The notes: generated by a model from the sequence alone, not told the origin. 64,000 nt of DNA from Minisyncoccota bacterium (GCA_041658985.1 JBAZZC010000004.1:20221-84220), one strand, 5' to 3'. Shown: positions 18,992-59,502, numbered from the stretch's first letter. A program made the numbers and translations.

Positions 18992-19007
18992 AAGTTTTAG
19001 AAATTAA

Positions 19008-21626: not shown

Positions 21627-21712
21627 GGGTAGGTGCCCGAGCGGTCAAAGGGGACTGTCTGTAAAACAGTTGGCCTAGGCCTACAGAGGTTCAAATCCTC
21701 TCCTACCCACCA
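21627..21712 (+). tRNA. tRNA-Tyr(GTA), type II (copy 2), 6 nt after the tyrS stop
   Basis: Acceptor GGGTAGG/CCTACCC, anticodon stem ACTGT with loop CTGTAAA, long variable arm GGCCTAGGCC, T-loop GGTTCAAATCC, encoded CCA. Confidence 0.85.
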
Positions 21713-22572: not shown

Positions 22573-23136
22573 ATGAAACTGGCGGTACTGTTAGCTGGTC
22601 TACCTGGGTCGGGTAAGACAACGATCTGTCGGCACATGGCTGAAATGCCCAAGGTGTGTCATGTTGATGTTGACCACTATAAGAGGCACAGAGCTGATCC
22701 AAAGAAAGTGACAAAAGAAGTGGACTCGCCGGAACTCCGACTGCTCTACTGTCGGGATGCTCTGAACGAGGCCTTCTGTCACTTTGATGCTGGGGCATCG
22801 GCTGTTGTGATGGATGAAGTATATCCCTACCACTCAGTTCGTGCTCAATTGGAAGCGCTCTGTGCGGAAAGGCAAGTGCAAGTGTTGTGGGTTGAGGTAC
22901 GGTCCTTGTGTGGTACGGCGGTGAAACGTCTTTCTACACCAAGACCAGGACACCTCCTCACACCAGAGTGTGCCGCGGAGATTCACCGCATGTGTGCGGC
23001 TATCTTCGAGGCGTTTCCTGCCGGTTGTCAGAATCACGTCATTATCAACAACGAAGATGGTGCCGACATCAATCGGTTGGTGACTGGTCTCATGGGGGTT
23101 GTCAACAAAAACCCTCAAGTCATCAGTTGTGGCTAG
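22573..23136 (+). CDS. P-loop NTPase/kinase (AAA_33 / zeta-toxin-like small kinase), GC-rich
   Basis: Walker A GLPGSGKTT near the N-terminus, ~185 aa. SD CAGGAG upstream. Confidence 0.55.
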   Translation: MKLAVLLAGLPGSGKTTICRHMAEMPKVCHVDVDHYKRHRADPKKVTKEVDSPELRLLYCRDALNEAFCHFDAGASAVVMDEVYPYHSVRAQLEALCAERQVQVLWVEVRSLCGTAVKRLSTPRPGHLLTPECAAEIHRMCAAIFEAFPAGCQNHVIINNEDGADINRLVTGLMGVVNKNPQVISCG

Positions 23137-31080: not shown

Positions 31081-32412
31081 TTAAGAATTATTAAGTAAAG
31101 TTACATCCGCCCCAATAGTATTTAGTCTTTTGGCTATGTTTTCATAACCGCGATTAATTGAATAAACATTTCGCAAAATTGATGTGCCCTTAGCTCCTAA
31201 CATTGCTACGAGAACAATCGTGGCTGGGCGCAGAGCTGGTGGACAAATAACCTGGTTTCCTTTTAATTCAGTTGGACCAGTAACCAAGACCCTGTGTTGG
31301 TCAGCTAGAACAATATTTGCTCCAAGTCGATTAAGCTCTGTGAAATAAATTGCTCGGTTTTCCCACATCCAATCATGAATAAGTGTTGTGCCTTTTGCTT
31401 GGGTAGTTATTGGCACAAAGAACGGCAGATTGTCCGAATTTATTCCTGGGTATGCTGACGCATGCACCTTGTCATTTAAGGCATTCAATTTAGACGGATA
31501 GGCCGTGATATCACACAGTCTGGTATGCTTATTTTTAGCTAAGTATATTTTTGATTTATGGTATTTTAGGCCCATTTTTTCTAGTTTTAATAACTCAAGA
31601 GAAAGAAAATCAATTGGGCATCTTGTGATTAATAATTTGGAGTTTGTGACAATAGCCGATGCAATAAACATCATGGATTCAGTAGGGTCTTCACTGTTGT
31701 AATATTCAACTGGTGTATTTATTTCTTTTACTCCATGTATTACAAGTGTAGAGGTGCCAATACCATCTATTTTTACTCCACATTTTTCCAAGAAAAAACA
31801 GACCTCTTGGACTTGATAGTTGGGTGGGGTGAACCGAAGTGTGGTAATGCCTGGAATCAATGCTGAAGCGATTAATAGGTTTTCTGTGGCCGTATCGCTG
31901 GCCTCATACAAAACAATATCAGCTGGTTTTAATTTTTTGCACTTAATTTGATGAACTGCTTCTTTGGTAACAATTTTTACACCAAAAGATTCAAGTCCGT
32001 ATCTGTGAGCGGCAATAGTTCTCTGTCCCATTTTGCATCCACCGGCATGTGGAAGCTCAAAACTATTTTTAAAATGTATTAAAGCTCCAATCATCATTAA
32101 GACAGAGCGAATACGAGAAGAAGAGTTATTGTCCATCTTTTTTAGATTGAATTTTTTAGGTGGTATAATTTTTACCGAGTTATGTTTTATCCATTCAACT
32201 TTTACGCCAATACTTTCAAATATCTCAATAATTCGGGATATTTCTTCTATCCGAGGAATTCCATGAAGTACTGTAATTTGTTTATTTAAAAGAGATGCGC
32301 AGAATAGACCAAGAGCACCGTTTTTAGATGTGTTTGTTTGTATGGTACCGGAAAGTTTTCTACCACCCACTATTTTGAAATCGTCAGTATCGTTTTTTGG
32401 TTTACTTTTCAT
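31081..32412 (-). CDS. murA: UDP-N-acetylglucosamine 1-carboxyvinyltransferase
   Basis: EPSP-synthase fold. KISGTIQ..KNGALGLFCASLL, and the active-site loop HAGGCKMGQRTIAAH containing the MurA Cys. Confidence 0.9.
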   Translation of the reverse strand: MKSKPKNDTDDFKIVGGRKLSGTIQTNTSKNGALGLFCASLLNKQITVLHGIPRIEEISRIIEIFESIGVKVEWIKHNSVKIIPPKKFNLKKMDNNSSSRIRSVLMMIGALIHFKNSFELPHAGGCKMGQRTIAAHRYGLESFGVKIVTKEAVHQIKCKKLKPADIVLYEASDTATENLLIASALIPGITTLRFTPPNYQVQEVCFFLEKCGVKIDGIGTSTLVIHGVKEINTPVEYYNSEDPTESMMFIASAIVTNSKLLITRCPIDFLSLELLKLEKMGLKYHKSKIYLAKNKHTRLCDITAYPSKLNALNDKVHASAYPGINSDNLPFFVPITTQAKGTTLIHDWMWENRAIYFTELNRLGANIVLADQHRVLVTGPTELKGNQVICPPALRPATIVLVAMLGAKGTSILRNVYSINRGYENIAKRLNTIGADVTLLNNS

Positions 32413-32520
32413 AGTGGGATTATAACATATTTTATGTTTATCAAATTTGTGATAAACTAGAGATGTCGTTCTTGTATTTTCTTTATAACTTTTTACCTTA
32501 TAACTTTATAACTAATTTTC

Positions 32521-33564
32521 ATGTCACAGTTTTATAATGATTCAATTTTTTGGATTGATGTAGAAAAAATACACCCGAACCCTTTTCAACCAAGAAGGGA
32601 ATTTGACCAGGCCCAACTTCAAAGTCTGTCTGATTCAATTCGCCAATACGGAGTGCTTCAGGCCCTCGTTGTTACCCGCAAAGAAGTTCCTAAAGAGGAC
32701 GGTGGTCTTGCCGTTGAATATGAATTAATAGCAGGAGAGAGACGTCTACGAGCGGCTAAGATGGCTGGTCTTTCACAGGTGCCAGTTCTTATAAAAGTTG
32801 GTGATGAGGAAAACGATTTGATGAAACTAGAGCTTGCTATTATAGAAAACATTCAACGTGAAGATTTAAATCCAGTAGATCGCTCTCGTGCTTTTCAGCG
32901 TTTGATAGATGAGTTTGGTTTTAAACACGTAGAAATTGCAAAAAAAGTTGGCAAGAGCCGGGAGTACGTTTCTAACTCAGTTCGTCTGCTATCTTTACCT
33001 TCGGAAATCTTAGACGCATTATCACAGGGTAAAATTTCTGAGGGTCATGCAAGACCTCTCATGATGCTTGGTGACAGGTTGGATGAGCAGATGACTTTGT
33101 TTAAAGAAATAATGTTTAAAAAATTGACGGTGCGAGAAGCCGAAGCTATTGGTCGTCGCGTTGCCTATGATAAAATTCGCAAAAAGGGAGCCACTCTTGA
33201 CCCAGAAACCCAAGAATTAGAGGAAAAACTAACAGAAACATTAGGTACAAGAGTTTCCATAGAAAAACGAGAAAACGGTGGGAAGATTTTAATAGATTTT
33301 TTCTCTGCAGATGATTTACGGGACATTCTTACACTTCTTGAAACTAACAAGGCGAAATCTCCAACCGAAAGATTGGACAAACATATAGAGAAAAATCCCG
33401 TTCCACCAAAAAATGAATTTATTCCTAATTATGTCAGAGACCCAGGGTTAGCAGATTTGACCGTAGAGGATCTGAATGGTTTAGACGACAGAACTCCAGA
33501 ACAAAAAAATCAGGATGAAAATAGCGAGGAGGAAATTTACTCAATCAAAAACTTCAGTATCTAG
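32521..33564 (+). CDS. parB: ParB/Spo0J-family partition protein
   Basis: ParB N-domain IHPNPFQPRREF, GERRLRAAKMAGL, and an HTH region. Confidence 0.85.
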   Translation: MSQFYNDSIFWIDVEKIHPNPFQPRREFDQAQLQSLSDSIRQYGVLQALVVTRKEVPKEDGGLAVEYELIAGERRLRAAKMAGLSQVPVLIKVGDEENDLMKLELAIIENIQREDLNPVDRSRAFQRLIDEFGFKHVEIAKKVGKSREYVSNSVRLLSLPSEILDALSQGKISEGHARPLMMLGDRLDEQMTLFKEIMFKKLTVREAEAIGRRVAYDKIRKKGATLDPETQELEEKLTETLGTRVSIEKRENGGKILIDFFSADDLRDILTLLETNKAKSPTERLDKHIEKNPVPPKNEFIPNYVRDPGLADLTVEDLNGLDDRTPEQKNQDENSEEEIYSIKNFSI

Positions 33565-33566
33565 CT

Positions 33567-35081
33567 TTATTTTTTGTTTCTTTCTAGAAAATTATTAATT
33601 CTTCTTCTTGCTATAGTTGTTTTACAGTCCTCAAGCCATTTGATACTTGGCTTTGAATTTTTCTTAGTCTCTATCTCTACTCGGTCTCCATTCTGGAGAA
33701 TCGTTTCGATTGAAACAAACTTGCCGTTTACTTTAGCGCCAGACATGTGATCACCTACATCTGTGTGTATTGCATATGCAAAATCAATAACTGAAGAATT
33801 TTTTGGCAAATCTATAACATCTCCGATTGGTGTGAAGACAAAAATCCTTTCCTCAAAAAAGTCACTTTTTACCTCCTCAATAAAACGTTCGCCGGCTTCT
33901 TTTTGGTACTCAACAAGCTCTTTTACCCAGTTTGGAACATCATCCGAAATATTATGGTTGTTTGGGTTTTTACTATTACTTTTCTGTGGCAGAATTTTTG
34001 TGACCCACAAAAGATTTGGATTGGTTACCTTTTTTACACTTTCCTTATATGACAAATGAGAAGCAATACCATACTCCGCTTCTTTATGCATCTCTTCTGT
34101 TCTAATCTGAACCTCAATAATACCTCCATCGCCAGAAAATATGGTTGTGTGTAATGATCTATACCCGTTTATTTTTGGGGAAGCGATATAGTCTTTTATT
34201 CTCTCTGGTAGCGGTCTCCAAGCACCATGAATTATTCCAAGAACCCTATAACAATCAGAGACTTCTGGTACAGTTATACGCATAGCTGAAATATCGTAAA
34301 TAGTTTCGACATTACCTTTGTATTTTTGTAATTTTTTATATAGTGAATACAACCCCTTTACTCTATGGTCAATTTTAAAACTTGTTATATTATTTTTGGC
34401 TAATTCTTTTTTAACTAGTTTCTCAAATTTTTCTAAATATCTTTCCTGCTCTTCTCTTTTTGCATTAAGTAGCTCTTTGGTTTTTTTGTGGTCTTCTTTA
34501 TAAACATAAGCAAAAGCCAAATCTTCCAATTCTCTTTGGAGTTTTTTTATACCAAGACGACTGGCGATAGAGGCGTATATTTCTAAAGTTTCTATTGCTA
34601 TTCTTAATTGTTTTTCTTGTGAGACATATTCCAATGTTTGCATATTGTGTAATCTGTCACAGAGCTTGACGATAAGCACTCTAATATCCTGCGACATTGC
34701 AATGAACAGTTTACGCAAACTCTCGTTGTATCTTTGGGTACCACGATATTTTATTTCTCCAAGTTTTGTTACTCCGTCTACCAGAAACAATATTTCTTCG
34801 CCAAATTCCTTTTTTATTTCCTCTGGTTGTGTCTTGGTGTCTTCTAGTAAATCATGCAAAAAGCCGACCGAGATGGTAGTTGCGGTCATTCCAAGCTCGG
34901 CGATATTTTTTGCTGTGGCAAATAGGTGAGTTATATATTCGTCCCCACTATTTCTCTTTTGTCCTCTGTGAGCATTCTCGGCGAAACTGTAGGCTTTCTG
35001 TATAAGCCCGATGTCAGCCTCCGTTGGGTTCTGCATGAGGGAAATTATCTCTTTTATGTCCTTCATATTCGGATTATACAT
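33567..35081 (-). CDS. bifunctional (p)ppGpp synthetase/hydrolase, RelA/SpoT family
   Basis: HD domain HRGQKRNSGDEYITHL...HDLLEDT. Synthetase domain with YRSLHTTI. Confidence 0.9.
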   Translation of the reverse strand: MYNPNMKDIKEIISLMQNPTEADIGLIQKAYSFAENAHRGQKRNSGDEYITHLFATAKNIAELGMTATTISVGFLHDLLEDTKTQPEEIKKEFGEEILFLVDGVTKLGEIKYRGTQRYNESLRKLFIAMSQDIRVLIVKLCDRLHNMQTLEYVSQEKQLRIAIETLEIYASIASRLGIKKLQRELEDLAFAYVYKEDHKKTKELLNAKREEQERYLEKFEKLVKKELAKNNITSFKIDHRVKGLYSLYKKLQKYKGNVETIYDISAMRITVPEVSDCYRVLGIIHGAWRPLPERIKDYIASPKINGYRSLHTTIFSGDGGIIEVQIRTEEMHKEAEYGIASHLSYKESVKKVTNPNLLWVTKILPQKSNSKNPNNHNISDDVPNWVKELVEYQKEAGERFIEEVKSDFFEERIFVFTPIGDVIDLPKNSSVIDFAYAIHTDVGDHMSGAKVNGKFVSIETILQNGDRVEIETKKNSKPSIKWLEDCKTTIARRRINNFLERNKK

Positions 35082-35175
35082 TAAAACACATTAAAGTGAA
35101 GATGTTGTTGACTTTTTGTTTAAATTACATTATTACTTTGTTTAGAGGGCAGGGTTTTGCCCGGGGAGGTTTCCA

Positions 35176-35442
35176 GTGTTATTGTTAGAAGATTACACAA
35201 CCCTACTCAGATGGACCCTCTTGGTTAAGGGTGTTATCTGGATGGTCGTTTTCACGGCCATCATCATGGTTTGCGTCGGCTGGAGGCCGTGGCACAGGTG
35301 TGTTCACTGCCAGAGTCGGCTCGTCTTTTGGCGGGACAAGATGACCACCATCATGACGTGTAGTGTTATTGAATACCACCAAAGAGGTTGGTGGAGGTGT
35401 CTTTGGTGCTGGAAACGAGAAATCAACTTCCGGCCCCAATGA
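35176..35442 (+). CDS. GC-rich small Cys/Trp-rich hypothetical protein. It is uncertain which strand is coding; the minus-strand ORF 35203..35445 is Pro-rich.
   Basis: ~360-bp GC-rich block between rel and topA. The plus-strand ORF is followed by an 11-bp-stem hairpin plus T-run at 35451-35517. Confidence 0.25.
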   Translation: MLLLEDYTTLLRWTLLVKGVIWMVVFTAIIMVCVGWRPWHRCVHCQSRLVFWRDKMTTIMTCSVIEYHQRGWWRCLWCWKREINFRPQ

Positions 35443-35515
35443 CACTCCCAGGCCTCAACAGAAAAGAACTTCGCGCTTCGTGCACGGGGTCCTCATACTG
35501 TTGAGGCCTTTTCTG

Positions 35516-37831
35516 TTACTTATTAATTTTTCCCGCCTCATCGGCGGGTCGCCGAGGAGGCGACTTCTTAAACCCACGTTTCTTTTTTTCTTGAGCAAAA
35601 ATTTCTAATGCACGGGGGAGTTCTATCGTATAAACATCATCTTCTTTTAACGAGCGAAAATCTTTTTGGTGGACAATATATGGTCCAAACATTCCGATAT
35701 TAGCTGTTATCTTTTCTCCAGTATCTGGATGAACACCTAATACTCGGGGAAGTGTAAGATAGGTCAAAGCATCTTGGAGGGTTACGGTAGAGAGATCTTT
35801 TCCTTTTGGAATCGAAGCCATTTTAGGTTTAACGGCTTTAGTTGAACCTTTTCTCCCAGTACCAGAGCGAAGCTCGGTACGGGACTTCGCTTTAGCTCTT
35901 TCTCCCACTTGAACATATGGTCCGTATTTTCCAATCAAAATGTAAATAGGTAATCCGGTTTCTGGGTCTGTTCCGATTGGTTCTTCCTTTTTTATTTCCT
36001 GTCCATCCATAGTCAGTGCTCCCTGACATTCTGGATATTTAGCACAAGACAAGAATTTTCCTCCACGAGAAAGTTTAATTATCATAGGTCCCTGACAGAC
36101 AGGACATTTCATTTTTGCGTCTGCATCACCAAGATTATTTACTTTATCTATTTTGTCTTTGCTTTTTACATCAGCTAAGAATGGTTTATAAAAAGTCTTT
36201 AGGGTTTTTACATATTCTTCTTTTCCGTTGGCGATGAGGTCAAGCTTGTCTTCCATTTCAGCAGTGAAACTATCACTTATATAGTTAGCAAAATTGGCTT
36301 CAAGAAAACTTGAAACCACATCACCAGTATCGGTTGGTACTAGGGCTTTATTTATTTTGTCTACATAACCCCTGTCTTCCAGAGTTCCAATAATAGAAGC
36401 ATATGTACTAGGTCTTCCGATTCCTCTCTTTTCTAATTCTTTAACAAGCCCTGCCTCAGAATATCTTCCTGGAGGTTCGGTTTGTTTTTCTTCGGTTGAA
36501 ACTTTCTTGAGCCCCAATTTCTCACCGACAGAGACTTTTGGTAATTCAACATCATCTCCTCGAGAGGCGGGGTCACCCAAAAGCCACCCAGGAAATTTTA
36601 TTTGTGAACCAGTTATAGAAAAATCTGGCATATCACTACCTTTAACGTTTGTGGTGATTTTTGTGCGTAATGTCATCGCATCCTTCATTTGTGATGATAC
36701 TGTTCGTCTCCAAATTAATTCATAAAGTTTTTTTTGTTCGTCATTTATTCCAGCATGCTCAACATTAAAATGGGTAGGGCGAATAGCTTCGTGGGCTTCC
36801 TGGGCATTTTTGCTTTTTGTCGCAAATTTTCTAATTTGTAAAAATTCTTTTCCGTATTTACTTTCAACAACTTGTGCTATTTGAGCTATAGCCACAGCGC
36901 TTAAATTTGTTGAATCTGTACGCATGTACGTAATATATCCTGCTTCATATAGTTTTTGGGCAATACCCATAGTTCTTGAAGGTGAAAATCCAAGGCGAGA
37001 ACTAGCGGTTTGTTGAAGTGTTGAGGTAATAAAGGGTGCTCTGGGAGATTTCTTTACGTCCATTTCTTTAACATCTTTTACGAACCATTTATTTTCTTTT
37101 CCACCTTTTTCGGCAGTTTCAACAATCTGCTCAACCTCTTTTTTGTCTGTAGGTTCAACCTCGCAGACCACCGTAAATTGACCAGACCCGCCTCCTTGGC
37201 GGGTCGCCGAAGAGGCGACATCTGCCGAGATAACCCAAAAAGCATGAGATTTAAAAGCACGAATTTCCCTTTCTCTCTCCATTATGATTCGGAGAGCGGG
37301 GGACTGAACTCTGCCTGCAGAAAGTCCATATCGAATTTTTTTCCAGATAAGTCCGGATAAATCATATCCAACAAGTCGGTCCAATACACGTCGCGCTTCC
37401 TGTGCTTGTCTCAAATTCTGATCTATGTCTCTGGGATGTTCTAATGCTTCCCGTATTGCTTCTTCTGTAATTTCAACATATGAAACCCTCTTCACTTTCG
37501 ACTTTCGACTTTCGACTTTCGACTTGCCGAAATCATTACCTATGATTTCGGCAATGTGCCAAGCGATAGCTTCACCCTCACGGTCGGGGTCGGTAGCAAG
37601 TAGTATTTCATCTGCCTTTTTTGAAAGAGATTTAATTTCATTAACCACCTTTTCTTTTCCTTTTGATATTTCGTAATGGGGAATAAAACCACCATCTATA
37701 TCAATGGCTTTTTTGTTCGATTTTGGTAAATCACGAATATGACCAACAGAAGCAACAACGGTGTACTCACCATCAAGATATTTTGAAATTGTCTTTGCTT
37801 TTGCTGGAGACTCTACAATAAGTAACTTCAT
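35516..37831 (-). CDS. topA: DNA topoisomerase I
   Basis: Toprim MKLLIVESPAKAKTI, catalytic-Tyr region, C-terminal zinc ribbons (CPVCQGPM...). Contains two in-frame GC-rich palindromic insertions and a 7-bp x4 tandem repeat. Confidence 0.95.
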   Translation of the reverse strand: MKLLIVESPAKAKTISKYLDGEYTVVASVGHIRDLPKSNKKAIDIDGGFIPHYEISKGKEKVVNEIKSLSKKADEILLATDPDREGEAIAWHIAEIIGNDFGKSKVESRKSKVKRVSYVEITEEAIREALEHPRDIDQNLRQAQEARRVLDRLVGYDLSGLIWKKIRYGLSAGRVQSPALRIIMEREREIRAFKSHAFWVISADVASSATRQGGGSGQFTVVCEVEPTDKKEVEQIVETAEKGGKENKWFVKDVKEMDVKKSPRAPFITSTLQQTASSRLGFSPSRTMGIAQKLYEAGYITYMRTDSTNLSAVAIAQIAQVVESKYGKEFLQIRKFATKSKNAQEAHEAIRPTHFNVEHAGINDEQKKLYELIWRRTVSSQMKDAMTLRTKITTNVKGSDMPDFSITGSQIKFPGWLLGDPASRGDDVELPKVSVGEKLGLKKVSTEEKQTEPPGRYSEAGLVKELEKRGIGRPSTYASIIGTLEDRGYVDKINKALVPTDTGDVVSSFLEANFANYISDSFTAEMEDKLDLIANGKEEYVKTLKTFYKPFLADVKSKDKIDKVNNLGDADAKMKCPVCQGPMIIKLSRGGKFLSCAKYPECQGALTMDGQEIKKEEPIGTDPETGLPIYILIGKYGPYVQVGERAKAKSRTELRSGTGRKGSTKAVKPKMASIPKGKDLSTVTLQDALTYLTLPRVLGVHPDTGEKITANIGMFGPYIVHQKDFRSLKEDDVYTIELPRALEIFAQEKKKRGFKKSPPRRPADEAGKINK

Positions 37832-37985
37832 TTGAATTTAATATACGAATATACGAATAATACGAATTTACGAATGGCTACGAATAAAATCATAACATAA
37901 TTACATTATTCGCATACATTTGTATCATTCGTACGATGTTCGTATCCGTAGTATTACCTCAAAAAATAATTTTGTCCAATTTTAA

Positions 37986-38030
37986 TAAAAACGAAATCCG
38001 CCGAGCGCGACGAATCTCGTCGGTCGGCGG
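37986..38030 (-). terminator. rho-independent terminator for the GC-rich gene 38043..38324
   Basis: Minus strand: CCGCCGACCGACGAGATTCGTCGCGCTCGGCGG followed by ATTTCGTTTTT. Confidence 0.65.
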
Positions 38031-38042
38031 GGCTTACCACTT

Positions 38043-38324
38043 TCAGTGAATTGTGTCTGGTGGGGACGGAATCTCGGCGTCGTCGATGATGATTGCCGAA
38101 CACGTCCAACTGTTGGGGTTCACATCACTTTCCAGGATGTAGAACTCCTTACCTTTGAACGTTAACGGCAGAGCCTTGAGAACCCTGTGGTCATAGCCAC
38201 ATTCCTCAGGTTCCCTCGTCTCGACAACCGTTCCCGCAGACAGACTGAGCTCCGTGTGGTGTAGGAGCTGGGTTCCTTCTCGTCTCTTGAGAACCCGAAG
38301 TCTCTTGTTGACCCTGATTTTCAT
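38043..38324 (-). CDS. hypothetical GC-rich small protein (93 aa)
   Basis: SD AGGAGGT 6 nt before the ATG. Own terminator. GC content clearly above the flanks. Confidence 0.45.
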   Translation of the reverse strand: MKIRVNKRLRVLKRREGTQLLHHTELSLSAGTVVETREPEECGYDHRVLKALPLTFKGKEFYILESDVNPNSWTCSAIIIDDAEIPSPPDTIH

Positions 38325-38380
38325 TCGTACCTCCTGTTTTTAAGTTATCACTTTTTTCTAATTTTGCAACCATTCATGGC

Positions 38381-39235
38381 TCATTTCAAATGTATTTCTC
38401 CCATAACTTCCTCAATAAGATTTTTTATTTCCATCGTGGCGATAATTGTTTGTGTTACATAAACCGGTTTGCCAAGTCGGCGAATTATTTCGTCCCGAGA
38501 AAGTGGTTCATTTAATATATTTATAACTTCATGTTCGTCGCTTGAACACTGCGAGTAATCTCTTTTTTGAAATAGGTCTTCGTGCGGATTGAGTCCAAGT
38601 GCTGAAACGATATCACTTGATTGTGTTATGGGCGTTGCACCAAGACGTAGAAGCATATGTGGTCCTTCGGATGTTTTAGAAAAAATGGAATTAGGAACTG
38701 TGAAAACATCACGATTGTATTCCGTGGCGTATTTTGATGTGATGAGTGTTCCAGACTGAAGCCCAGCTTCAATTACAAGAGTTGCATTACTCATTCCTGC
38801 AATGATTCTGTTTCGTTGAGGTGGACTCCATGGTGTTGTTATAAAATCATCCTTGAATTCAGAAATCAATGCGCCACCTTTTTCAATTATTTGTTTTCCG
38901 AGTTCGCGATTGGTTGACGGATATAAAACTTTTTCTCCAAGTCCAGACGGTAATACTGCGACAGTTGGGAGTCCGGTACGCAAGGCTGAATGGTGTCCGA
39001 TCGCATCCATACCAAGTGCTAACCCAGATACAATAGTAATGGAATATCCTCGCAGACCCTCAATAAGTTTTTCACAAACCGCTTTTCCATACTCACTGTA
39101 TTTTCGCGAACCCACAACGGCGAGATATTTCTCTGTCTGTGGCAATTCACCAATAATCCGCATTGATTCCGGCGGGTCGTTTATTTCAAGTAGTAGAGGA
39201 GGAAAATCTTTCTTTTTCAAATCTTGAATTTGCAT
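38381..39235 (-). CDS. dprA: DNA-processing protein DprA (SMF family)
   Basis: LAVVGSRKYSEYGK ... IVSGLALGMDAIGHHSAL Rossmann-like DprA core. Confidence 0.85.
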   Translation of the reverse strand: MQIQDLKKKDFPPLLLEINDPPESMRIIGELPQTEKYLAVVGSRKYSEYGKAVCEKLIEGLRGYSITIVSGLALGMDAIGHHSALRTGLPTVAVLPSGLGEKVLYPSTNRELGKQIIEKGGALISEFKDDFITTPWSPPQRNRIIAGMSNATLVIEAGLQSGTLITSKYATEYNRDVFTVPNSIFSKTSEGPHMLLRLGATPITQSSDIVSALGLNPHEDLFQKRDYSQCSSDEHEVINILNEPLSRDEIIRRLGKPVYVTQTIIATMEIKNLIEEVMGEIHLK

Positions 39236-39354
39236 TATTTTAGTATATCAATATGTATGTAATTTGTAATGGATTGTGATTGACAATTTATGCAACAAGT
39301 ATAATCTAAAAAAAGATTTATGTTTTTTGGCCACCTGTAACTCGGAGGTTTCTA

Positions 39355-39698
39355 TGAAAATGGTTCTTGTGTGCGTGCTCGCTCTTTGCTTTGTTGCTTG
39401 TGAACATCACAGTGTGACGACATTCAATGCTGTGATTTCCGACCTCCGGGTAACGGGGTCGTTGGCCTTAGGAGAAACGGTGGAAACTGTAAGTGCATGC
39501 GGGTTTTCTGCCAAGGGTGAGGGTCGCACACTCATCTTCAGAACTACCAACTACGCGTTGGAGTGTTCTCTTTTGAAGAATGGGGACATGATACAAATCA
39601 CGAAGGTGGTAACAACTTCGCCTGGGGGTGAAGGTGTTCGTTACCACTGGTATGTGGGGGAGAAGCACGACAGTCTCTATCCGGAGACGGTTCGTTGA
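39355..39698 (+). CDS. GC-rich small lipoprotein (lipobox LCFVAC)
   Basis: SD GGAGG 7 nt before ATG at 39355. Signal peptide MKMVLVCVLALCFVAC. Terminator at 39724-39768. Confidence 0.45.
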
Positions 39699-39789
39699 CT
39701 TTCTCGGCGTGTGTTTGGGTTTTCGGCCATGGATTAGCAGTCCGTGGCCGTTTCTTTTCATATTATATTGATTTTGATACTATATATAC

Positions 39790-41061
39790 ATGTTAGACAT
39801 AAAATTTATTCGAGAGAATAAGGATCTCATATCTGCTGGAGCAGAGAAAAAACATATTAAATTTGATGTTAATGCTTTACTTACTGCTGACGATAAACGC
39901 AAGGAACTTTTAGTGACTATTGAGAACAAAAGAGCAGAACAGAATGTGGTTAGTGAGAAAATGGTCAGAACAAATAACCAATCAGAAAAAGACCAAATGA
40001 TTTTGGAGATGAAAGGACTTAAAGAAGAACTACAGAAGGAAGAAGAAGAATTAAAAAAGGTGATGCACGAATGGCAAACCCTAATGATTTCAGTGCCAAA
40101 CATTCCAGATATGTCTGTGCCAGATGGAAACAGTGATAAAGATAATAAGGAAGTAAAAGTTTGGGGAGAAATTCCAAAATTTGATTTTAATCCCAAGGAC
40201 CACATTGAACTTATGCAAGACTTAGGAATGCGTGATATTGAGCGTGGAGTCAAAGTTGCTGGGTTTAGAGGGTATATTCTGAAAGGAGATGGGGCGAGGT
40301 TACAATTTGCTCTCTGGCGATTTGTTCAAGATTTTTTTATGAAAAAAGGAGGATTTACTCCAATGATTGTACCTTCACTTATAAAACGAGAGGCGTTTTT
40401 AGGAACAGGATATATTCCACAGGGAGAGGAGGACTTGTATAAAACACAAGATGGGGAGTATCTTTCTGGTACTGCAGAGGTTGCAATGATGTCGTATTAC
40501 ATGGGAGAGGTTTTAGAAAAAAAAGATTTACCAATAAAAATGTTAGGGTTTTCTTCCGCCTTTCGTCGTGAGGCAGGAGCACACGGAAAAGATACGCGGG
40601 GTATTTTGAGAGTTCATGAGTTTTATAAATTTGAGCAGGTAGTATTATGTGAAGCCTCTCATACTGAATCAGTAAAATATCATGAAGAAATAGAGAGGAA
40701 CACAGAGGAGATTATGGAAACACTAGGTTTGCCTTACCACGTTGTTATTAATTGTGCTGGAGATTTGGGCCTTGGGCAGGTTAAAAAATATGATATTGAG
40801 GCGTGGCTTCCATCAGAAAATACATATCGTGAGACTGGTTCGGCTTCTTATTTTCATGATTTTCAAACACGCAGACTTAATATTCGTTATAGGGACAACG
40901 ATGGTAAAATGAAATTTGTTCACTCGCTTAATAACACCGCTCTCTCTGGTCGTCCTCTTATTATGATAGTAGAAAACTATCAAAATGAAGATGGAAGTAT
41001 ACGAATTCCGGACGTACTTCAGCCCTACATGGGAGGACAGCAAATTATTTCGAAGAAATAA
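39790..41061 (+). CDS. serS: serine--tRNA ligase
   Basis: N-terminal coiled-coil arm (MLDIKFIRENKDLI...) and class II motifs (FRREAGAHGKDTRGILRVHEF, GSASYFHDFQ). Confidence 0.95.
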   Translation: MLDIKFIRENKDLISAGAEKKHIKFDVNALLTADDKRKELLVTIENKRAEQNVVSEKMVRTNNQSEKDQMILEMKGLKEELQKEEEELKKVMHEWQTLMISVPNIPDMSVPDGNSDKDNKEVKVWGEIPKFDFNPKDHIELMQDLGMRDIERGVKVAGFRGYILKGDGARLQFALWRFVQDFFMKKGGFTPMIVPSLIKREAFLGTGYIPQGEEDLYKTQDGEYLSGTAEVAMMSYYMGEVLEKKDLPIKMLGFSSAFRREAGAHGKDTRGILRVHEFYKFEQVVLCEASHTESVKYHEEIERNTEEIMETLGLPYHVVINCAGDLGLGQVKKYDIEAWLPSENTYRETGSASYFHDFQTRRLNIRYRDNDGKMKFVHSLNNTALSGRPLIMIVENYQNEDGSIRIPDVLQPYMGGQQIISKK

Positions 41062-41183
41062 TTTGAATTTCTAATTTTTAATTCCTAATTTCTAAATAAG
41101 CACCAATAAACAATGAATGAGTTGGGGATTGGGTTTTGGAATTTAATTAGTAATTAGAAATTAGGTCAATTAGAAATTTTTAT
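41062..41183. mobile_element. miniature inverted-repeat element, family B (AATTTCTAATT-type TIRs), no ORF
   Basis: Left arm GAATTTCTAATTTTTAATTCCTAATTTCTAAATAAG. Right arm AATTAGTAATTAGAAATTAGGTCAATTAGAAATTTTT (approximate reverse complement). Related copy at 42043-42495. Confidence 0.5.
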
Positions 41184-41184
41184 T

Positions 41185-42042
41185 ATGATTGTCACCAAGT
41201 CTCTTTCACACGGAGAGTATTTAAGAAAAAGGAGAAATAAAAAACTCTGGAAGTTTAGTATTGCTCTTTTTTTAGTCATTTTAATTATCGGGCTTACTTC
41301 ATATCTTTCACACAGGTCAGAGGTTCGTATCTCAAAAGTTGAATTAAACGGTGGAATTTTGGTAACACAAGCCGATTTAGAATCTAAAACCCTTGAATAC
41401 ATGTACGGTTCACATTTTTGGTTATTTCCAAGAAACAATGCTTTTTGGTATCCACATGGTGGTCTAGAGAAATATTTAAAGGAGACCTTTAAAAGAATTG
41501 ATGCTATAGATATCAGTCGGAAAGGTTTGCAGACTTTGGTGATAGACATCAAGGAACGAAAGCCGTTTGCTCTTTGGTGTAATAGTCCTTCAGTCTCTAC
41601 AACTACTCCAATCACGGAGAATGGTGCGGAGGATTGTTATTTCCTAGACCAAAATAGTACTATTTTTGCCAAAGCCCCGACCTTTTCAGGTGACGCATAT
41701 TTTAAATATTATGGAATCTTATCAGAATCGGAGTTGTCACCTATAGGCAAGGAATATATGGCAAGCACTACCGAATTTACTGCAATTTCAAATTTTGTTT
41801 CAAGTGTAAAAGAGCTCTCAATAAGGCCGTTATATTTGATAGCAAAAAGTGATGATGAATTTTCTCTTGTTGTCTCTGGTAAGGGTGAGATTTATTTTAA
41901 TTTAAAGGAGCCTTTATCTATTACCAGCCAGAATCTTAAAGCACTTTTACGTACCCCAACTTTTGCCAGTACGACGGGTGATTTGCCGGTGGAGTATATA
42001 GACCTTCGCTATGGCAATAAGTTGTTTTATAAACTCAAATAG
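41185..42042 (+). CDS. FtsQ/DivIB-like cell-division protein (TM + POTRA-like domain)
   Basis: Single N-terminal TM, then ISKVELNGGILVTQADLES (POTRA-like). Family assignment tentative. Confidence 0.5.
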   Translation: MIVTKSLSHGEYLRKRRNKKLWKFSIALFLVILIIGLTSYLSHRSEVRISKVELNGGILVTQADLESKTLEYMYGSHFWLFPRNNAFWYPHGGLEKYLKETFKRIDAIDISRKGLQTLVIDIKERKPFALWCNSPSVSTTTPITENGAEDCYFLDQNSTIFAKAPTFSGDAYFKYYGILSESELSPIGKEYMASTTEFTAISNFVSSVKELSIRPLYLIAKSDDEFSLVVSGKGEIYFNLKEPLSITSQNLKALLRTPTFASTTGDLPVEYIDLRYGNKLFYKLK

Positions 42043-42495
42043 AATTTCTAATTACTAATTTCTAATTACTAAATAAATCCCAATGATCAAAAACCAAAAG
42101 TTTGATTTGGAAGAACGAAGTGCAAAATTTGGGGAGGATGTAATTAAATTTTGTAGAGACTTGCCGAAAGATGAAATAACAAGACCAATAATTAATCAAC
42201 TGGTAAAATGTAGTACGAGTGTTGGGGCTAATTATTGTGAAGCAGATGATGCTGAATCTAAGAAGGATTTTAAACACAAGATTGGTATTTGTAAGAAAGA
42301 AGCAAGAGAATCAAAACATTTTTTGAGAATGTCTGTAATTGCAGTACCCGAAGTTAAGGAAAGAGCAAAAATTTTGTGGGTTGAGGCAAAAGAGCTAAAT
42401 TTGATATTTAATGCTATATATAATAAGTGTTGACTTGGTAATTGGTGCTTGGTTATTGTTTAGAAATTAGGTCAATTAGTAATTAGAAATTTTTA
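42043..42495. mobile_element. family B TIR element carrying a four-helix-bundle (23S rRNA IVS protein family) gene
   Basis: Left arm GAATTTCTAATTACTAATTTCTAATTACTAAATAA. Right arm TAGAAATTAGGTCAATTAGTAATTAGAAATTTTTA (approximate reverse complement). Encloses ORF 42083..42433. Confidence 0.5.
42083..42433 (+). CDS. four-helix-bundle protein (TIGR02436 / 23S rRNA intervening-sequence protein family)
   Basis: KCSTSVGANYCEADDAESKKDFKHKIGICKKEARESKHFLRM matches the rSatSIpANIAEG...kdf...l.iA.GS..E family pattern. Confidence 0.7.
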   Translation: MIKNQKFDLEERSAKFGEDVIKFCRDLPKDEITRPIINQLVKCSTSVGANYCEADDAESKKDFKHKIGICKKEARESKHFLRMSVIAVPEVKERAKILWVEAKELNLIFNAIYNKC

Positions 42496-42515
42496 CGTAT
42501 TCGTATATTAACTTT

Positions 42516-43541
42516 ATGACTTTTTGGAATAAGTTAAAAAAACCATTTTTTGTTCTTGCACCCATGGCAGATGTAACTGACCCAGCCTTTCGGCGTATTA
42601 TTGCCAAGTATGGAAAACCAGATGTTTTGTGGACGGAGTTTGTTTCGGCTGATGGTTTGTTTATGGGGGGATATGATGCATTAGTCAAAGATCTGGCTTT
42701 TAGTGAAGAAGAGAGACCAATCGTGGCACAATTTTTTACTTCAAAACCAGAAATAATGGAGAGGGCGGCCAAACTTGCAGTGGAGCTTGGGTTTGATGGT
42801 ATTGATATAAATATGGGCTGTCCCGACAAGAGTATAGAAAAGCAAAGTGCTGGGGCAAAACTTATGACCAACCCAAAGCTAGCTCAAGAAATTATTTTGT
42901 CTGCCATGAAGGGGGCGGGGGATTTGCCTGTTAGTGTAAAGACACGAATTGGTTGGAATAAAAATGAACTTGAGACTTGGTTGCCTGCTCTTTTAGAAAC
43001 AAATCCTGCTGCTATTACTGTCCACGCACGGACCCGCAAGGAACTGTCTCTTGTGCCGGCAAGATGGGAACATGTGAAGCGAGCTGTTGAGATTAGAGAT
43101 AATTTTATTAATTCACAGGGAGAAAAAAGTAAGACTTTAATTATTGGAAATGGTGATGTAAAAGATTTAGATGATGCAAAAGCTAAAGCCGAGGAGACTG
43201 GTTGTGATGGAGTTATGCTTGGACGTGCTATTTTTGGTAATCCATGGTTATTTGCCAATTTGTCCCATGCGAAGCATGGTAGACAAATTGAGCATCCCGC
43301 CGAAGCCTTGGCGAAGGTGGATATTTCCATTGAAGATAAATTAAAAGTGCTGGTAGAACATACAAAATTATTTGAAAAATTACTTCCGCAAAAAAGTTTT
43401 GCGGTTATGAAAAAACATTACAAAGCGTATGTGACAGGATGGCATACAGCAAAAGAATTACGAATGAAATTGATGGAAGCAGGAAATACAAACGAAGTTG
43501 AGCAGGTTGTGGATAACTATTTAGAAAATAGCTTAAAATAA
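42516..43541 (+). CDS. tRNA-dihydrouridine synthase
   Basis: FVLAPMADVTDPAFRRIIAKYG (Dus lAPMaGvTD..FR), TIM-barrel FMN-binding motifs, catalytic Cys region NMGCP. Confidence 0.9.
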   Translation: MTFWNKLKKPFFVLAPMADVTDPAFRRIIAKYGKPDVLWTEFVSADGLFMGGYDALVKDLAFSEEERPIVAQFFTSKPEIMERAAKLAVELGFDGIDINMGCPDKSIEKQSAGAKLMTNPKLAQEIILSAMKGAGDLPVSVKTRIGWNKNELETWLPALLETNPAAITVHARTRKELSLVPARWEHVKRAVEIRDNFINSQGEKSKTLIIGNGDVKDLDDAKAKAEETGCDGVMLGRAIFGNPWLFANLSHAKHGRQIEHPAEALAKVDISIEDKLKVLVEHTKLFEKLLPQKSFAVMKKHYKAYVTGWHTAKELRMKLMEAGNTNEVEQVVDNYLENSLK

Positions 43542-43580
43542 GGATATTTTCATATTAAAAAATAAGGCATATTTTATTGC

Positions 43581-43972
43581 TTGACTTATCCTATGGTTAT
43601 GCTATACTTAGCCTCGGAACCCTGGGGCGTCGAGTCGGAGAGTTGAGGTTGGCCAAAGGGCCGAGTTTCTCCGCGCGAATGAACGCGCCGGGCTTCCATG
43701 TGGTATACTTAATTCATCGATGGCCGGGCCGCTGCGACGACAATGCAACGACCTGGCAAAGCGGACCAACTCTGGCGGTTGCCAGAAAGGAGGAGTGCCT
43801 ACGCACCCGAGAAGAATGCATTGATACACCCCGCCAAGGGAAGTCCAGTGCAGGTCCTCGGGCTAGAACACACCAAGCTCTTTTATGGCCCGCGGTGGCC
43901 TAGAGCCACCGCGGGTTACCATAACGCCCTTGGACGTAAGACGCAGATTTGCGCAGTCGTAGGGCGTTTTTT
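43581..43972 (+). ncRNA. GC-rich putative structured RNA 1 (~360 nt), identity unknown
   Basis: TTGACT-16-TATACT promoter at 43581-43608. Strongly GC-rich body with no SD or coherent ORF. 3' stem ACGCCCT...AGGGCGT + TTTTTT at 43925-43972. Confidence 0.45.
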
Positions 43973-44010
43973 CATATCTAAAAAGAAAAAGTGAAAACTT
44001 TTTAAAATGC

Positions 44011-44270
44011 TTGACATATTTTGGTAGTATGATAACTTACTTATTAGACGACGAAGCTCGAGAGGGGTTGAAGTGGTATAACCCATAGACCCATCTCTGG
44101 CCTTTGCGAGGGGCTCACGCCATGACGACGCCGGACTAAAAAGGCGCACCACGGCGGGTGGACCATCCAAACAAATGAATCTCGGTTTATTCCGAGCTTC
44201 AGCACACTGAGTTGGATGGCCACCCCCCAAGCCAAGCACCGAGGTCCACCTGCGGACCGAGGTGTTTTTT
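44011..44270 (+). ncRNA. GC-rich putative structured RNA 2 (~225 nt), identity unknown, immediately upstream of dnaX
   Basis: TTGACA -35 box at 44011. GC-rich body. Terminal hairpin GGTCC-acctgc-GGACC region + TTTTTT at 44240-44270. Confidence 0.4.
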
Positions 44271-44312
44271 CGTATACAAAAAGAAAACGAAATAAGTTAT
44301 ACTGTTATAACT

Positions 44313-45383
44313 ATGAGCGAGACACTATATAGAAAATACCGTCCCCACAAATTCTCCGACGTAATCGGGCAAGACCATATCGTTAAAGTTCTAGAAGCAG
44401 AGGTGAAATCTGGCGACATTTCTCACGCCTATCTTTTTGCAGGAACTCGCGGGACGGGGAAAACTTCTGTGGCAAGAATTTTTGCATCTGGCATTGGCAC
44501 ATCCGCAAATGATATTTATGAAATTGATGCCGCATCAAATACAAGTGTAGATGATGTTCGGGCATTGAACGAATCAGTTTTTACTCTACCTTTTGAATCA
44601 AAATATAAAGTTTACATTTTGGACGAAGTCCACATGCTCTCCAAGTCTGCTTCAAACGCCCTGCTCAAGACTTTGGAAGAACCACCGGCACATGTTGTTT
44701 TTATTCTTGCCACAACAGAGACACACAAGATACCACAGACTGTTTTGTCTCGCTGTGAAGTCTACACATTTAAAAAACCAAGTCAGGAGGTCTTGAAAAA
44801 AATGTCTCAAACTGTGGCAAAGAAGGAAGGATTTGTGCTAGACGACTCATCGGCAGAACTAGTTGCAATTTTGGGTGACGGCTCCTTCCGTGATACACAA
44901 GGGATTGTCCAAAAAGTGCTTGCGTATTCAAAAGACCCCAGTACTAGAGCAGAGCTCAGTACGGGGCACAGCAAGAAAATTTCTGAAGACGAGGTTCGTC
45001 TCGTTACGGGTGCGCCATCGGTGGAGCTTGTTCATGGTGTTGTTTCAGCCATGGCTGAAAAGGATTTGACCAAAGGTCTGGAAAATGTAAAAAAGGCAGT
45101 TGAACAAAATATAGACATGTCTGTCTTTCTGAAATTAATCTTGCACACAGTCAGAGCGGTCTTGCTTGTTAGATTCGGGGCAGGGCATTTGGTCAAAGAC
45201 GAACTATCAGAAAAAGAATTTGCTTTTGTAAGTGATTTTGCTCTAAATCCCGAAGTTGGTGAAGTCTTCTCATCCCAGACACTCATTGAACTTCTGACTG
45301 CCTACGAGAAAACAACTGGGGCGTATATACCGCAGTTACCACTTGAATTGGCTCTAGTAAAGCTTATTGGTGAAAACAAATAA
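44313..45383 (+). CDS. dnaX: DNA polymerase III subunit gamma/tau (short form)
   Basis: YRKYRPHKFSDVIGQDHIVKVLEAEV, Walker A AGTRGTGKTS, SRC sensor motif SRCEVYTF. Start taken at the Met of MSETLYRKY; the ORF track starts at 44262 inside the RNA-2 terminator. Confidence 0.85.
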   Translation: MSETLYRKYRPHKFSDVIGQDHIVKVLEAEVKSGDISHAYLFAGTRGTGKTSVARIFASGIGTSANDIYEIDAASNTSVDDVRALNESVFTLPFESKYKVYILDEVHMLSKSASNALLKTLEEPPAHVVFILATTETHKIPQTVLSRCEVYTFKKPSQEVLKKMSQTVAKKEGFVLDDSSAELVAILGDGSFRDTQGIVQKVLAYSKDPSTRAELSTGHSKKISEDEVRLVTGAPSVELVHGVVSAMAEKDLTKGLENVKKAVEQNIDMSVFLKLILHTVRAVLLVRFGAGHLVKDELSEKEFAFVSDFALNPEVGEVFSSQTLIELLTAYEKTTGAYIPQLPLELALVKLIGENK

Positions 45384-59499: not shown

Positions 59500-59502
59500 T
59501 TT

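Follow-up and report, generated by a model that had tools for sequence, protein, structure and literature searches.

The locus described here raises the question of why an AT-rich genome should carry discrete, GC-rich small genes between its housekeeping genes, and whether these genes are foreign cargo or a resident class. The window, that is, the whole stretch of DNA that was analysed, comprises 64,000 nucleotides of a Minisyncoccota bacterium (GCA_041658985.1, JBAZZC010000004.1:20221-84220). The source metagenome-assembled genome (MAG), that of an ultra-small groundwater organism, belongs to Candidatus Paceibacterota and is Zambryskibacteria-like; its DprA, TopA and ClpB proteins share 77-89% identity with proteins from Candidatus Zambryskibacteria MAGs. 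By exact protein matches, the window falls on an 86-kb contig recorded under GCA_041664695.1 (JBAYKJ010000003.1) and as ENA contig k141_935943. The window carries the housekeeping genes gyrA, clpB, infB, rbfA, serS, dprA, topA, relA/spoT and parB, together with mur ligases, dnaX, tyrS and an ABC/MacB exporter. The two focal genes, mini-gene 1 and mini-gene 2, lie in the dprA/topA and serS/dprA gaps (Table 1). A first-pass annotation, made from the sequence alone, had taken them for examples of recurrent GC-rich mini-genes, most of them coding for small exported or membrane proteins, and had proposed that they were acquired from a specific high-GC donor or by a mobile delivery mechanism. We analysed the window of about 64 kb and 46-47 fetched loci of relatives (L-numbers denote fetched loci). 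The GC-rich spikes were confirmed to be real small genes, tRNAs and two RNA genes. The small genes may be moron-like cassettes that are exchanged among relatives, with a GC-richness tied to selection for strongly folded mRNA; we hold this reading tentatively, at somewhat less than an even chance.

Composition was computed for each open reading frame (ORF) of a greedy ORF set of the window. The overall GC content of the window was 38.3%, as against the about 33 percent that had been supposed for the genome. Per-ORF composition was bimodal. Ordinary genes formed an AT class with a GC content of 0.30-0.42 and a GC content at third codon positions (GC3) of 0.20-0.36. A discrete GC class with GC3 values of 0.52-0.75 took in every ORF that had been listed as a GC spike; missing from that list were the tyrosyl-tRNA synthetase (TyrRS) gene, a tRNA cluster and a non-coding segment (Table 1). 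The claim that the spikes end where genes end was borne out. GC-richness spans each unit from its start codon to its terminator and leaves out the leader, which is AT-rich. GGAGG-type ribosome-binding sites were found 5' of the GC-class start codons, and a terminator scan with folding detected hairpins with T-runs 3' of the focal, 56057, 61027 and 7335 units (units are named by their first nucleotide). The description of self-contained, moron-like units with a promoter-like site, a ribosome-binding site, a small ORF and a terminator of their own was likewise upheld. A signal peptide or transmembrane (TM) helix was predicted in 5 of the 10 GC-class products and not, as had been stated, in most of them; neither was predicted for the 93-amino-acid (aa) product of mini-gene 1.

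Codon use in the GC class was shifted to G- and C-ending codons alike, in every codon family. Amino-acid use was shifted as well, with less K, N, I, F and Y and more G, A, P, V, T and W. The codon use of the GC class correlated with that of the AT class at r=0.17 and with that of the GC-rich relative L008 at r=0.78. Translational selection for particular tRNAs was tried as the main cause and ruled out, because a shift to both G and C endings in all codon families, together with the shift in amino acids, argues against it.

The first-pass annotation had also allowed for chimeric assembly at the junctions. The stretch 37496-40179 takes in each of the four GC/AT junctions around the focal genes and was 100% identical in the per-run Logan assemblies of SRR6484324 and SRR18595301, runs whose independence from the reads of the MAG is not established. 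This identity argues against chimeric junctions in the focal region. The same GC-spike architecture was observed in more than 20 MAGs from other studies. In the NCBI record L001, 3 of 12,282 positions differ from window positions 32043-44324; the contig is on record in two assembled versions, 86,253 and 86,289 nt long, and the window probably derives from the ENA or JGI one.

Both focal mini-genes are genuine protein-coding genes. The product of mini-gene 1 belongs to a family, here family A, whose codon differences from homologues numbered 39/33/62 of 84 codons at positions 1/2/3. In families A and B, the latter also found in the dprA/topA gap, pairwise differences were most frequent at position 3, less so at position 1 and least at position 2, and a confident structural model was obtained for family A. 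With this order of differences and no consensus structure, a structured non-coding RNA was rejected as the identity of the focal family. The topA promoter, AAAATTGGACAAAAT...GGTAATACT, follows downstream of the terminator of mini-gene 1 and is kept across relatives, and the homologous leader in L009 has the same layout as the leader of mini-gene 1. An AT-rich element of about 95-120 nt with dense ACGAAT/ATTCGT repeats lies between the topA promoter and the topA start codon (37832-37950); it is missing at the matching position in L047, L009 and other relatives. Mini-gene 2 starts at 39354 rather than at 39355 as first given, and its product has a lipoprotein-like N-terminus (MKMVLVCVLALCFVAC...). 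A homologue with 29% identity is present in the serS/dprA gap of L011.

The dprA neighbourhood was fetched from 32 species-representative genomes, and per-ORF composition was computed. Most close relatives hold a co-oriented small GC-rich ORF between dprA and topA. This gap measures 350-560 nt when filled, as compared with 31-37 nt in L034 and L040. The serS/dprA gap, 554 nt long in the window, is empty in 7 relatives, where it measures 2-118 nt. In many relatives small GC-rich ORFs occupy the topA/relA gap, which elsewhere is empty, and both this gap and serS/dprA are filled in some genomes and cut to 2-120 nt in others. Occupants of the dprA/topA gap fall into at least three unrelated protein families and singletons. 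Family A includes the occupants in the window, L009, L011 and L014, family B, with the C-terminus ...RHPTFRF, those in L018, L019, L020 and L030, and family C those in L022 and L033. The layout of the filled gap is constant: an AT-rich promoter-like leader, GGAGG, a GC-rich ORF and a GC hairpin with T-run, followed by the conserved topA promoter AAAATTGGACAAAAT...GGTAATA(C/A)T. In 25 AT-rich loci, 0 of 186 ORFs that are conserved in at least 10 loci were GC-rich, as compared with 17-46% (by length) of the ORFs without a homologue in the set, some small ones among the latter being possibly spurious.

The turnover was most directly seen between L018 and L019, which are 94% identical over 8.2 kb. 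Their identity collapses in two substantial places only, namely in the ORF bodies of the cassettes beside dprA (L018 5590-6075 against L019 9145-9600, and L018 4340-4760 against L019 7870-8315, neither pair alignable). In the dprA/topA gap the promoter, the ribosome-binding site, the last ~10 codons, the terminator and the topA promoter stay at ~95-97% identity. In the serS/dprA gap the cassette body has diverged, and the terminator and the dprA promoter are conserved. The two family B proteins are 32% identical; over 87 codons, their coding sequences show 40/43/50 differences at positions 1/2/3. The genomic background is far exceeded at every position, which points to allelic replacement, or possibly targeted hypermutation, and not to ordinary divergence. 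Thus the replacement is ORF-precise, with flanking promoters, last codons and terminators conserved. Gap content also differs between L024 and L025, which are 91% identical. The units belong to the variable gene pool, with gaps filled, empty or taken by unrelated families in relatives and with bodies replaced at 94% identity.

Family A was searched for with full HMMER in 1.84 billion representative proteins, one per 50%-identity cluster. Including the query, it comprises 19 members, nearly all of 77-101 aa, and the single small member with a taxon name is from Minisyncoccia. When the focal 93-aa protein was compared with 5.8 billion proteins by a word index, only the protein itself came back, and full HMMER was required to recover the family; pattern scans of IMG/VR and JGI metagenome contigs found nothing. 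The contexts were the dprA/topA gap in all 7 examined, one of them with a tandem pair (L044 2543-3069, paralogues of 84 and 87 aa). Family A GC3 in these gaps ranged from 0.34 to 0.63, against 0.25-0.33 for the neighbours. An AlphaFold model built on an 18-sequence alignment had eight strands and a pLDDT of 90.5; we are confident in the prediction of a soluble all-beta fold. A Foldseek search of the PDB with this model gave no match at E<0.4 and only vague SH3-like or S-layer-domain similarity. The family A domain also matches, weakly, five repeats of a giant protein of 2518 aa annotated as 'Ig-like domain (group 3)' (P0135, Bacillus sp. OV166; E 1.2e-6, 28% identity), the sole taxon-named match outside Patescibacteria.

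Apart from the weak Bacillus match, homologues of GC-class proteins occurred only in Paceibacterota, Minisyncoccia or Zambryskibacteria-type contexts. No recovered context of a cassette homologue was uniformly GC-rich; all were AT-rich genomes with the cassette in the same gap, and the AT-rich leaders are homologous between orthologous cassettes. The best matches of TyrRS had 70-73% identity, and the taxon-named matches at 59-71% were Patescibacteria. Relatives keep the order TyrRS, AAA_33 kinase, inositol monophosphatase and EamA. In L004, L005 and L006 this region is a mosaic in which TyrRS and the kinase have a GC3 of ~0.5 and the next two genes of 0.28-0.34. L008 has the same synteny and is uniformly GC-rich (GC3 ~0.65). 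For the SPFH-like protein only 4 relatives were found among the 5.8 billion proteins. Contexts were recovered for 3 of these 4 (L041, L042 and L043), and all were Zambryskibacteria-like with the same synteny: the gene adjoins a type IV secretion system (T4SS) pilin-like array and, in L041, also the tRNA/rbfA/infB side. The pair of SPFH and NfeD-like genes is a GC spike there as well (GC3 0.42-0.58 against 0.18-0.31).

Divergence at four-fold sites was the same in both classes. Identity between the window and relatives was 0.41 for SPFH, as compared with 0.41 for IF2, 0.43 for TopA, 0.46 for DprA and 0.50 for ClpB. The genes of the two classes have therefore diverged together, yet composition did not relax; the GC-class genes were neither recently exchanged between these lineages nor are they slowly evolving. 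A slow mutation rate behind a lagging amelioration was ruled out on the same data. By a rough calculation, a gene that was GC-rich at the split of the lineages should have relaxed most of the way to the background. Recent acquisition in this genome sits uneasily with GC-rich orthologues in relatives and a synonymous divergence equal to that of AT-rich neighbours; on the other hand, cassette bodies have been replaced between 94%-identical genomes. The dinucleotide relative-abundance signature of the GC class was no closer to L008 than to the host.

mRNA folding was then compared between the classes. The minimum free energy of each coding sequence was set against permutations of its own synonymous codons, over the whole gene or, as a local variant, within blocks of 40 codons for gene sets and of 30 codons for long genes. 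Whole-gene permutation gave a mean z of -2.08 for the GC class (n=24) and -0.70 for the AT class (n=24; Mann-Whitney, p=6.5e-5). With 40-codon blocks the mean z was -1.91 (n=24) and -0.66 (n=21), respectively (p=2.6e-4). Genes of the uniformly GC-rich relatives L008 and L037 had a mean z of -0.47 (n=16). Thus GC content alone is not the cause. Among the focal genes, z ranged from -2.5 to -3.9 for mini-gene 1 and from -2.7 to -3.7 for mini-gene 2; cassette 56057-56509 had a z of -4.2 over the whole gene and of -2.7 in blocks.

The excess was also seen in long genes, where values are given for whole-gene permutation and for 30-codon blocks in this order. TyrRS reached -6.24 and -4.91 in the window and -6.61 and -7.64 in L004; for L008 the whole-gene value only was obtained (-3.13). 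SPFH had values of -3.25 and -2.75 in the window and of -4.30 and -4.65 in L041. In the AT class, SerRS (+1.08 and +1.20), the aminotransferase (+0.67 and +0.92) and ParB (+0.39 and +0.20) were positive, and a MurA-like gene had -1.64 (whole gene only). In 12 of 13 genes the sense strand was more negative than the antisense strand (mean z -4.13 against -2.78; Wilcoxon, p=0.006), which points to RNA and not to DNA palindromes. By dinucleotide shuffling, the coding sequences of mini-genes 1 and 2 had z values of -2.52 and -2.80, and an AT-class gene of similar length had -0.31. Thus the GC class shows, in silico, ORF-delimited structure in excess of codon and amino-acid content, and such an excess is not predicted by a donor signature. 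The coding sequence of tyrS (20349-21620; L004 2243-3517) was calculated to be 45-60 kcal/mol more stable than its synonymous permutations, and the excess is common to both genomes, between which TyrRS is 73% identical as a protein. The synthetase may therefore be regulated at the RNA level.

On the favoured reading, GC spikes would mark, on the AT-rich background, those transcripts for which a stable RNA structure is required, namely tRNAs, two non-coding RNAs and one protein-coding class whose coding sequences would be GC-rich at all codon positions and fold beyond what amino acids and codon usage need. The gaps serS/dprA and dprA/topA would be hot spots of the flexible genome in Zambryskibacteria-like Paceibacterota. 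A cassette body would be gained, lost or swapped for a divergent or unrelated allele, and flanking promoters, terminators and core genes would stay in place. The most likely route is probably homologous recombination in the conserved flanks after DNA uptake, which is the simplest one given breakpoints in conserved flanks and the adjoining DNA-uptake gene dprA. GC-richness would be a property of the gene class, common to orthologues of the clade, and no mark of a foreign donor, with folding as the presumed selected trait. Folding of the mRNA could lengthen the life of the transcript, throttle translation across the ORF or give resistance to nucleases, and selection for it would have to be strong enough to override the AT mutational bias.

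Several results weigh against this reading. The 61027 cassette had a z of ~0 and the family A copy of L014 a z of -0.4; the link to folding is not obligatory. The folding evidence consists of predicted energies throughout, the control sets are small, and the scope is the window and the fetched loci. RNAalifold with six family A coding sequences gave no consensus structure or covariation, in a nucleotide alignment that is poor at such divergence. Selection, if acting on family A, would therefore act on generic compactness, which is harder to prove. The two family A copies of L044 are nearly host-like, with a GC3 of 0.34 and 0.36, and the spread of GC3 in family A resembles amelioration after arrival. 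The nearest neighbours of TyrRS and the AAA_33 kinase by pairwise identity differ from those of the adjacent AT-rich genes. Finally, GC-rich syntenic relatives exist, and the codon use of the GC class resembles theirs. We consider the observation solid and its population-genetic cause less settled.

These points bear most on the idea that cassettes, and now and then core genes such as TyrRS, are imported again and again, the donors being GC-richer lineages within the phylum or a GC-rich mobile pool that has escaped sampling. Such alleles would be lost or replaced before they ameliorate, and their GC content would have no function. We consider this somewhat unlikely. The neighbour mismatch of TyrRS and AAA_33, together with the very fast replacement of cassettes, keeps import from GC-richer Paceibacterota such as L008 a serious rival; L008 is syntenic and matches the codon use, family A copies look as if they were of different ages, and bodies were replaced between 94%-identical genomes. 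Such import does not, however, sit well with cassette contexts that were all AT-rich, with synonymous divergence equal to that of the neighbours or with leaders that are AT-rich and homologous. The sense-strand folding excess is missing from ordinary genes of GC-rich relatives. The dinucleotide signature, which lay as far from L008 as from the host or farther, could not tell the models apart.

A bolder version of the favoured reading posits two coding dialects in one small genome of the Candidate Phyla Radiation (CPR), an AT-rich one for ordinary genes and a GC-rich, hyper-folded one that would be kept by RNA selection and mark a post-transcriptional regulon rather than ancestry. The special transcripts would be those of the hypervariable small-protein cassettes, the SPFH/NfeD-like pair, the P-loop kinase and TyrRS. 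They might last very long or be kept in store to serve dormancy or the search for a host, resist AU-directed RNases or have their translation throttled. We regard this extension as unlikely.

GC-biased gene conversion at recombination hot spots, which would raise the GC content of exchanged segments, is improbable. The gaps are demonstrably sites of exchange, and a link between recombination and GC3 in bacteria was reportedly proposed by Lassalle et al. in 2015. Gene conversion in bacteria is not known to have effects anywhere near the GC3 increase of +0.3 to +0.45 seen here. The GC-richness runs from start codon to terminator, while the conserved flanks, which would form heteroduplexes, are AT-rich, and alleles of ~32% identity cannot form a heteroduplex in the body. 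The sense-strand folding excess and the non-variable TyrRS would be left unexplained.

Delivery by a family of miniature inverted-repeat transposable element (MITE)-like elements or by a large serine recombinase, as suggested in the first-pass annotation, is very improbable for the cassettes as a whole. The terminal-repeat motif TYATCCGCACAC occurs in 9 copies in the window as compared with 0.18 expected. Copies are found next to the 61027 cassette, within the 62.7-64.2 kb block and, in L041 and L042, where the SPFH/NfeD-like block ends; cassette 19528-20004 lies beside the recombinase. Among the GC-rich units of the window, a terminal-repeat element adjoins the 61027 cassette and the 62.7-64.2 kb block only. 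The focal cassettes and the units 56057, 35176 and 7335-8893 have, in the window, no terminal repeat, target-site duplication or recombinase nearby, and the motif is absent from 43 of the 47 fetched loci, most of which bear cassettes. MITEs and cassettes share what few intergenic gaps there are. The recombinase itself (17661-18991, minus strand) is bracketed by perfect 101-bp inverted repeats (17531-17631 and 19035-19135), and cassette 19528-20004 by 103-bp inverted repeats that match at 97% (19132-19234 and 20125-20227). Such nested inverted repeats are typical of, and suggest, an inversion switch with nested invertible segments at 17375-20350, not a delivery vehicle.

The explanation offered at first was cargo acquired from a single high-GC organism, for instance an episymbiont's host, and we now think it highly improbable. 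The GC class is similar in composition (GC 0.47-0.60), and about half of its products are secreted or membrane proteins, as such cargo might be. The searches of 5.8 billion and 1.84 billion proteins found no homologue outside Paceibacterota-type contexts, bar the Ig-like repeats of Bacillus; TyrRS groups with TyrRS of Patescibacteria, and orthologues are syntenic and GC-rich across many MAGs sampled at different sites. An artefact, either a chimeric assembly or non-coding GC-rich DNA with chance ORFs due to scarcity of stop codons, has next to no probability: GC-rich segments do carry overlapping ORFs on both strands, the 43.6-44.3 kb spike is truly non-coding and a 365-aa ORF at 18997-20094 is spurious, but two SRA per-run assemblies agree over the focal junctions, the pattern recurs in over 20 MAGs, and substitutions are codon-periodic in a conserved protein family with a confident fold.

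The remaining units are listed in Table 1 together with the focal ones.

Table 1. Coordinates of GC-rich units, their signals and MITE-like elements in the window. Ribosome-binding sites and promoters of the two mini-genes were read from the sequence, and the promoters are putative sigma-70-type sites; terminators of the mini-genes and of the SPFH/NfeD-like pair are from a scan with folding.
Feature	Position	Strand	GC	GC3	Remarks
Terminator of SPFH/NfeD-like pair	~7282-7316	-			
NfeD-like protein	7335-7823	-	0.56	0.61	two TM helices
SPFH/Band_7-like membrane protein	7826-8893	-	0.56	0.66	weak Band_7 match
tRNA cluster	9051-9859	-			five genes: Leu-CAG, Leu-TAG, Lys-CTT, Leu-TAA, Cys-GCA
MITE-like elements	11745-11887, 13624-13780, 59500-59754, 61332-61657, 63020-63075				TYATCCGCACAC inverted termini
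GC-class cassette	19528-20004	+	0.61		158 aa; no Pfam family
TyrRS	20349-21620	+		0.62	core gene, yet GC class; Pfam 1.5e-85
AAA_33 P-loop kinase	22573-23136	+	0.52	0.53	
GC-class cassette	35176-35442	+ (provisional)	0.50	0.65	88 aa; one TM helix; GGGGAGG; topA/relA gap
Mini-gene 1 terminator	37990-38021	-			intrinsic; 14-bp stem and T-run
Mini-gene 1	38043-38324	-	0.52	0.63	93-aa protein, family A; dprA/topA gap
Mini-gene 1 leader	38325-38368	-			AT-rich; AGGAGG at 38330-38335, 6 nt before ATG
Mini-gene 1 putative promoter	~38341-38368	-			promoter-like TTGCAA...GATAAC/TAACTT
Mini-gene 2 putative promoter	39280-39285, 39300-39307	+			TTGACA; TATAAT/TAATCT
Mini-gene 2 leader	39280-39348	+			GGAGG at 39344-39348
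Mini-gene 2	39354-39698 (ORF 39276/39354)	+	0.47	~0.52-0.54	114-aa predicted lipoprotein; serS/dprA gap
Mini-gene 2 terminator	39724-39750	+			intrinsic; 12-bp stem and T-run; z -3.76
Two non-coding GC-rich structured units	43560-44272 (~43610-43975, ~44040-44272)	+			Dus/dnaX gap; sigma-70-like promoter and hairpin terminator each
GC-class cassette	56057-56509	+	0.59	0.68	150 aa; signal peptide; terminator ~56531-56559
GC-class cassette	61027-61275 (ORF 61006)	+	0.54	0.54	82 aa; no signal peptide; terminator ~61274-61322
GC-rich block	62690-64000, ends ~64230	-			two or three small genes; no Pfam family
Largest gene of end block	63503-64204 (63503-63892 in window ORF set)	-	0.60	0.75	233 aa; runs past window end

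Searches of the cassette proteins against Pfam, PHROGs, NCBIfam and PADLOC gave nothing except one weak Band_7 match and matches to P-loop families. The end block does consist of GC-rich minus-strand genes, as had been noted; these are two or three rather than three or four, and both the last gene and the block run beyond position 64000. The AAA_33 kinase is an orthologue, in synteny, of the kinase in relatives and not cargo. Next to the SPFH/NfeD-like pair lie five small AT-rich genes with repeated N-terminal segments (4944-7267; direct repeats at 5929, 6321 and 6746), which are T4SS-pilin/TrbC-like (PF18895) by synteny with L042 and L043. The MITE-like copy at 61332-61657 overlaps the ORF of a GIY-YIG nuclease (61282-61644; Pfam 6e-14), and the copy at 59500-59754 is inverted and has no ORF. 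Together they bracket an mgsA-like AAA+ gene and the 61027 cassette.

Structural RNA accounts for the GC spike of the tRNA cluster. In the Dus/dnaX gap (43560-44272) no codon periodicity was found, and folding was strong, with z values of -3.46 for 43610-43975 and of -5.83 for 44040-44272. In 18 relatives the gap is GC-rich as well, with the conserved promoter CTTGACTTATTTT in front, but blastn could not align the interiors. Rfam returned only tRNAs for the whole window, at gathering thresholds as well as at E<=1, and no other family for 43500-44300 even at E<=10. ARAGORN detected no tmRNA in the window.

Around the recombinase, the 365-aa minus-strand ORF at 18997-20094 was rejected, the genuine gene there being 19528-20004 on the plus strand. 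Two tRNA-Tyr(GTA) genes are present, at 17451-17536 and 21627-21712. One directly follows tyrS; the recombinase ORF, on the opposite strand, overlaps the other with its 3' end. They were tried as att sites of an island bearing TyrRS; this was ruled out, as the two genes are not the same and agree at only 39 of 86 positions.

Atypical composition is the standard flag for horizontal gene transfer (HGT), and in the present case it would be misleading. The GC-rich genes are confined to the lineage, keep their synteny and have diverged like their neighbours, and are set apart by the strength of their RNA folding. If the favoured reading is true, composition-based calls of islands and HGT should be controlled for RNA structure when the CPR genome is AT-rich. 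It would also be a natural case in which selection for mRNA folding works against mutational bias and reshapes the synonymous and even the amino-acid use of a whole gene class. The fixed gaps, in which near-identical strains exchange small proteins, some of them exported, would then be obvious candidates for host-interaction or immunity functions in organisms not yet grown alone. In the searchable literature, neither GC-rich hyper-folded gene classes nor ORF-precise cassette swapping was found to have been described for Patescibacteria.

Among known systems, phage morons come close. A moron consists of one coding region that brings along a promoter and a terminator, is of deviant composition and lies between genes that are adjacent in related genomes (PMC4378225). 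Like morons, the cassettes are single genes with a promoter-like site and a terminator between neighbours that are adjacent in relatives, their composition is deviant, no recombinase target is recognisable, and the mode of acquisition is open in both cases. In contrast to morons, they reside in a cellular (CPR) chromosome and are shifted towards GC in an AT-rich genome. One gap is reused by several unrelated families, the coding sequences show excess RNA folding, and GC-richness persists in orthologues at saturated synonymous divergence. The neighbours are serS, dprA, topA, relA, dnaX, clpB and infB, and neither a PHROG match nor an IMG/VR relative indicated residence in a phage.

Several other systems were compared and rejected. 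Integron cassettes do not fit, as the cassettes are single and have promoter-like sites of their own, and the 3' hairpins with T-runs are terminator-like; no tyrosine integrase was found among the annotated ORFs of the window, where no attC search with a dedicated model was made. A target of a diversity-generating retroelement was excluded: there is no reverse transcriptase among the large ORFs and no matching repeat pair, and the L018/L019 bodies differ at all bases, with indels. Cargo of a MITE or transposon would call for terminal repeats, and the focal cassettes have none. A classical tRNA-linked island was rejected, since no integrase, tRNA att duplication or direct repeats were found at the focal cassettes.

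Hypervariable genomic islets between core genes are recombination-maintained variable loci in many bacteria. The cassettes resemble them in their fixed positions with varying content, in replacement between close relatives with breakpoints in conserved flanks, and in an enrichment of small genes of unknown function, several of them exported. Unlike islets, the cassettes are single genes of 250-500 bp, and the accessory DNA is GC-richer than the core, not AT-richer.

On an AT-rich background, stable RNA structure demands G and C, and structured transcripts therefore appear as GC spikes. Klein, Misulovin and Eddy reportedly used composition to find non-coding RNAs in AT-rich hyperthermophiles in 2002. 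The tRNA cluster and the 43.6-44.3 kb units behave exactly so, the latter being like non-coding RNA in their strong folding without codon periodicity, with sequences that do not align. Most spikes of the window are, in contrast, protein-coding mRNAs, and there is no sign of a thermophile.

A close parallel for these mRNAs may be Escherichia coli, in which ORF-wide units of mRNA structure track translation efficiency (Burkhardt et al. 2017, PMC5318159). In both cases the structure is delimited by the ORF, differs sharply between adjacent ORFs and is encoded in the sequence. In contrast to E. coli, the structure described here is derived from predicted folding energies only and belongs to a discrete gene class, in which it would be extreme enough to shift GC3 by +0.3 to +0.45 and, with it, amino-acid use.

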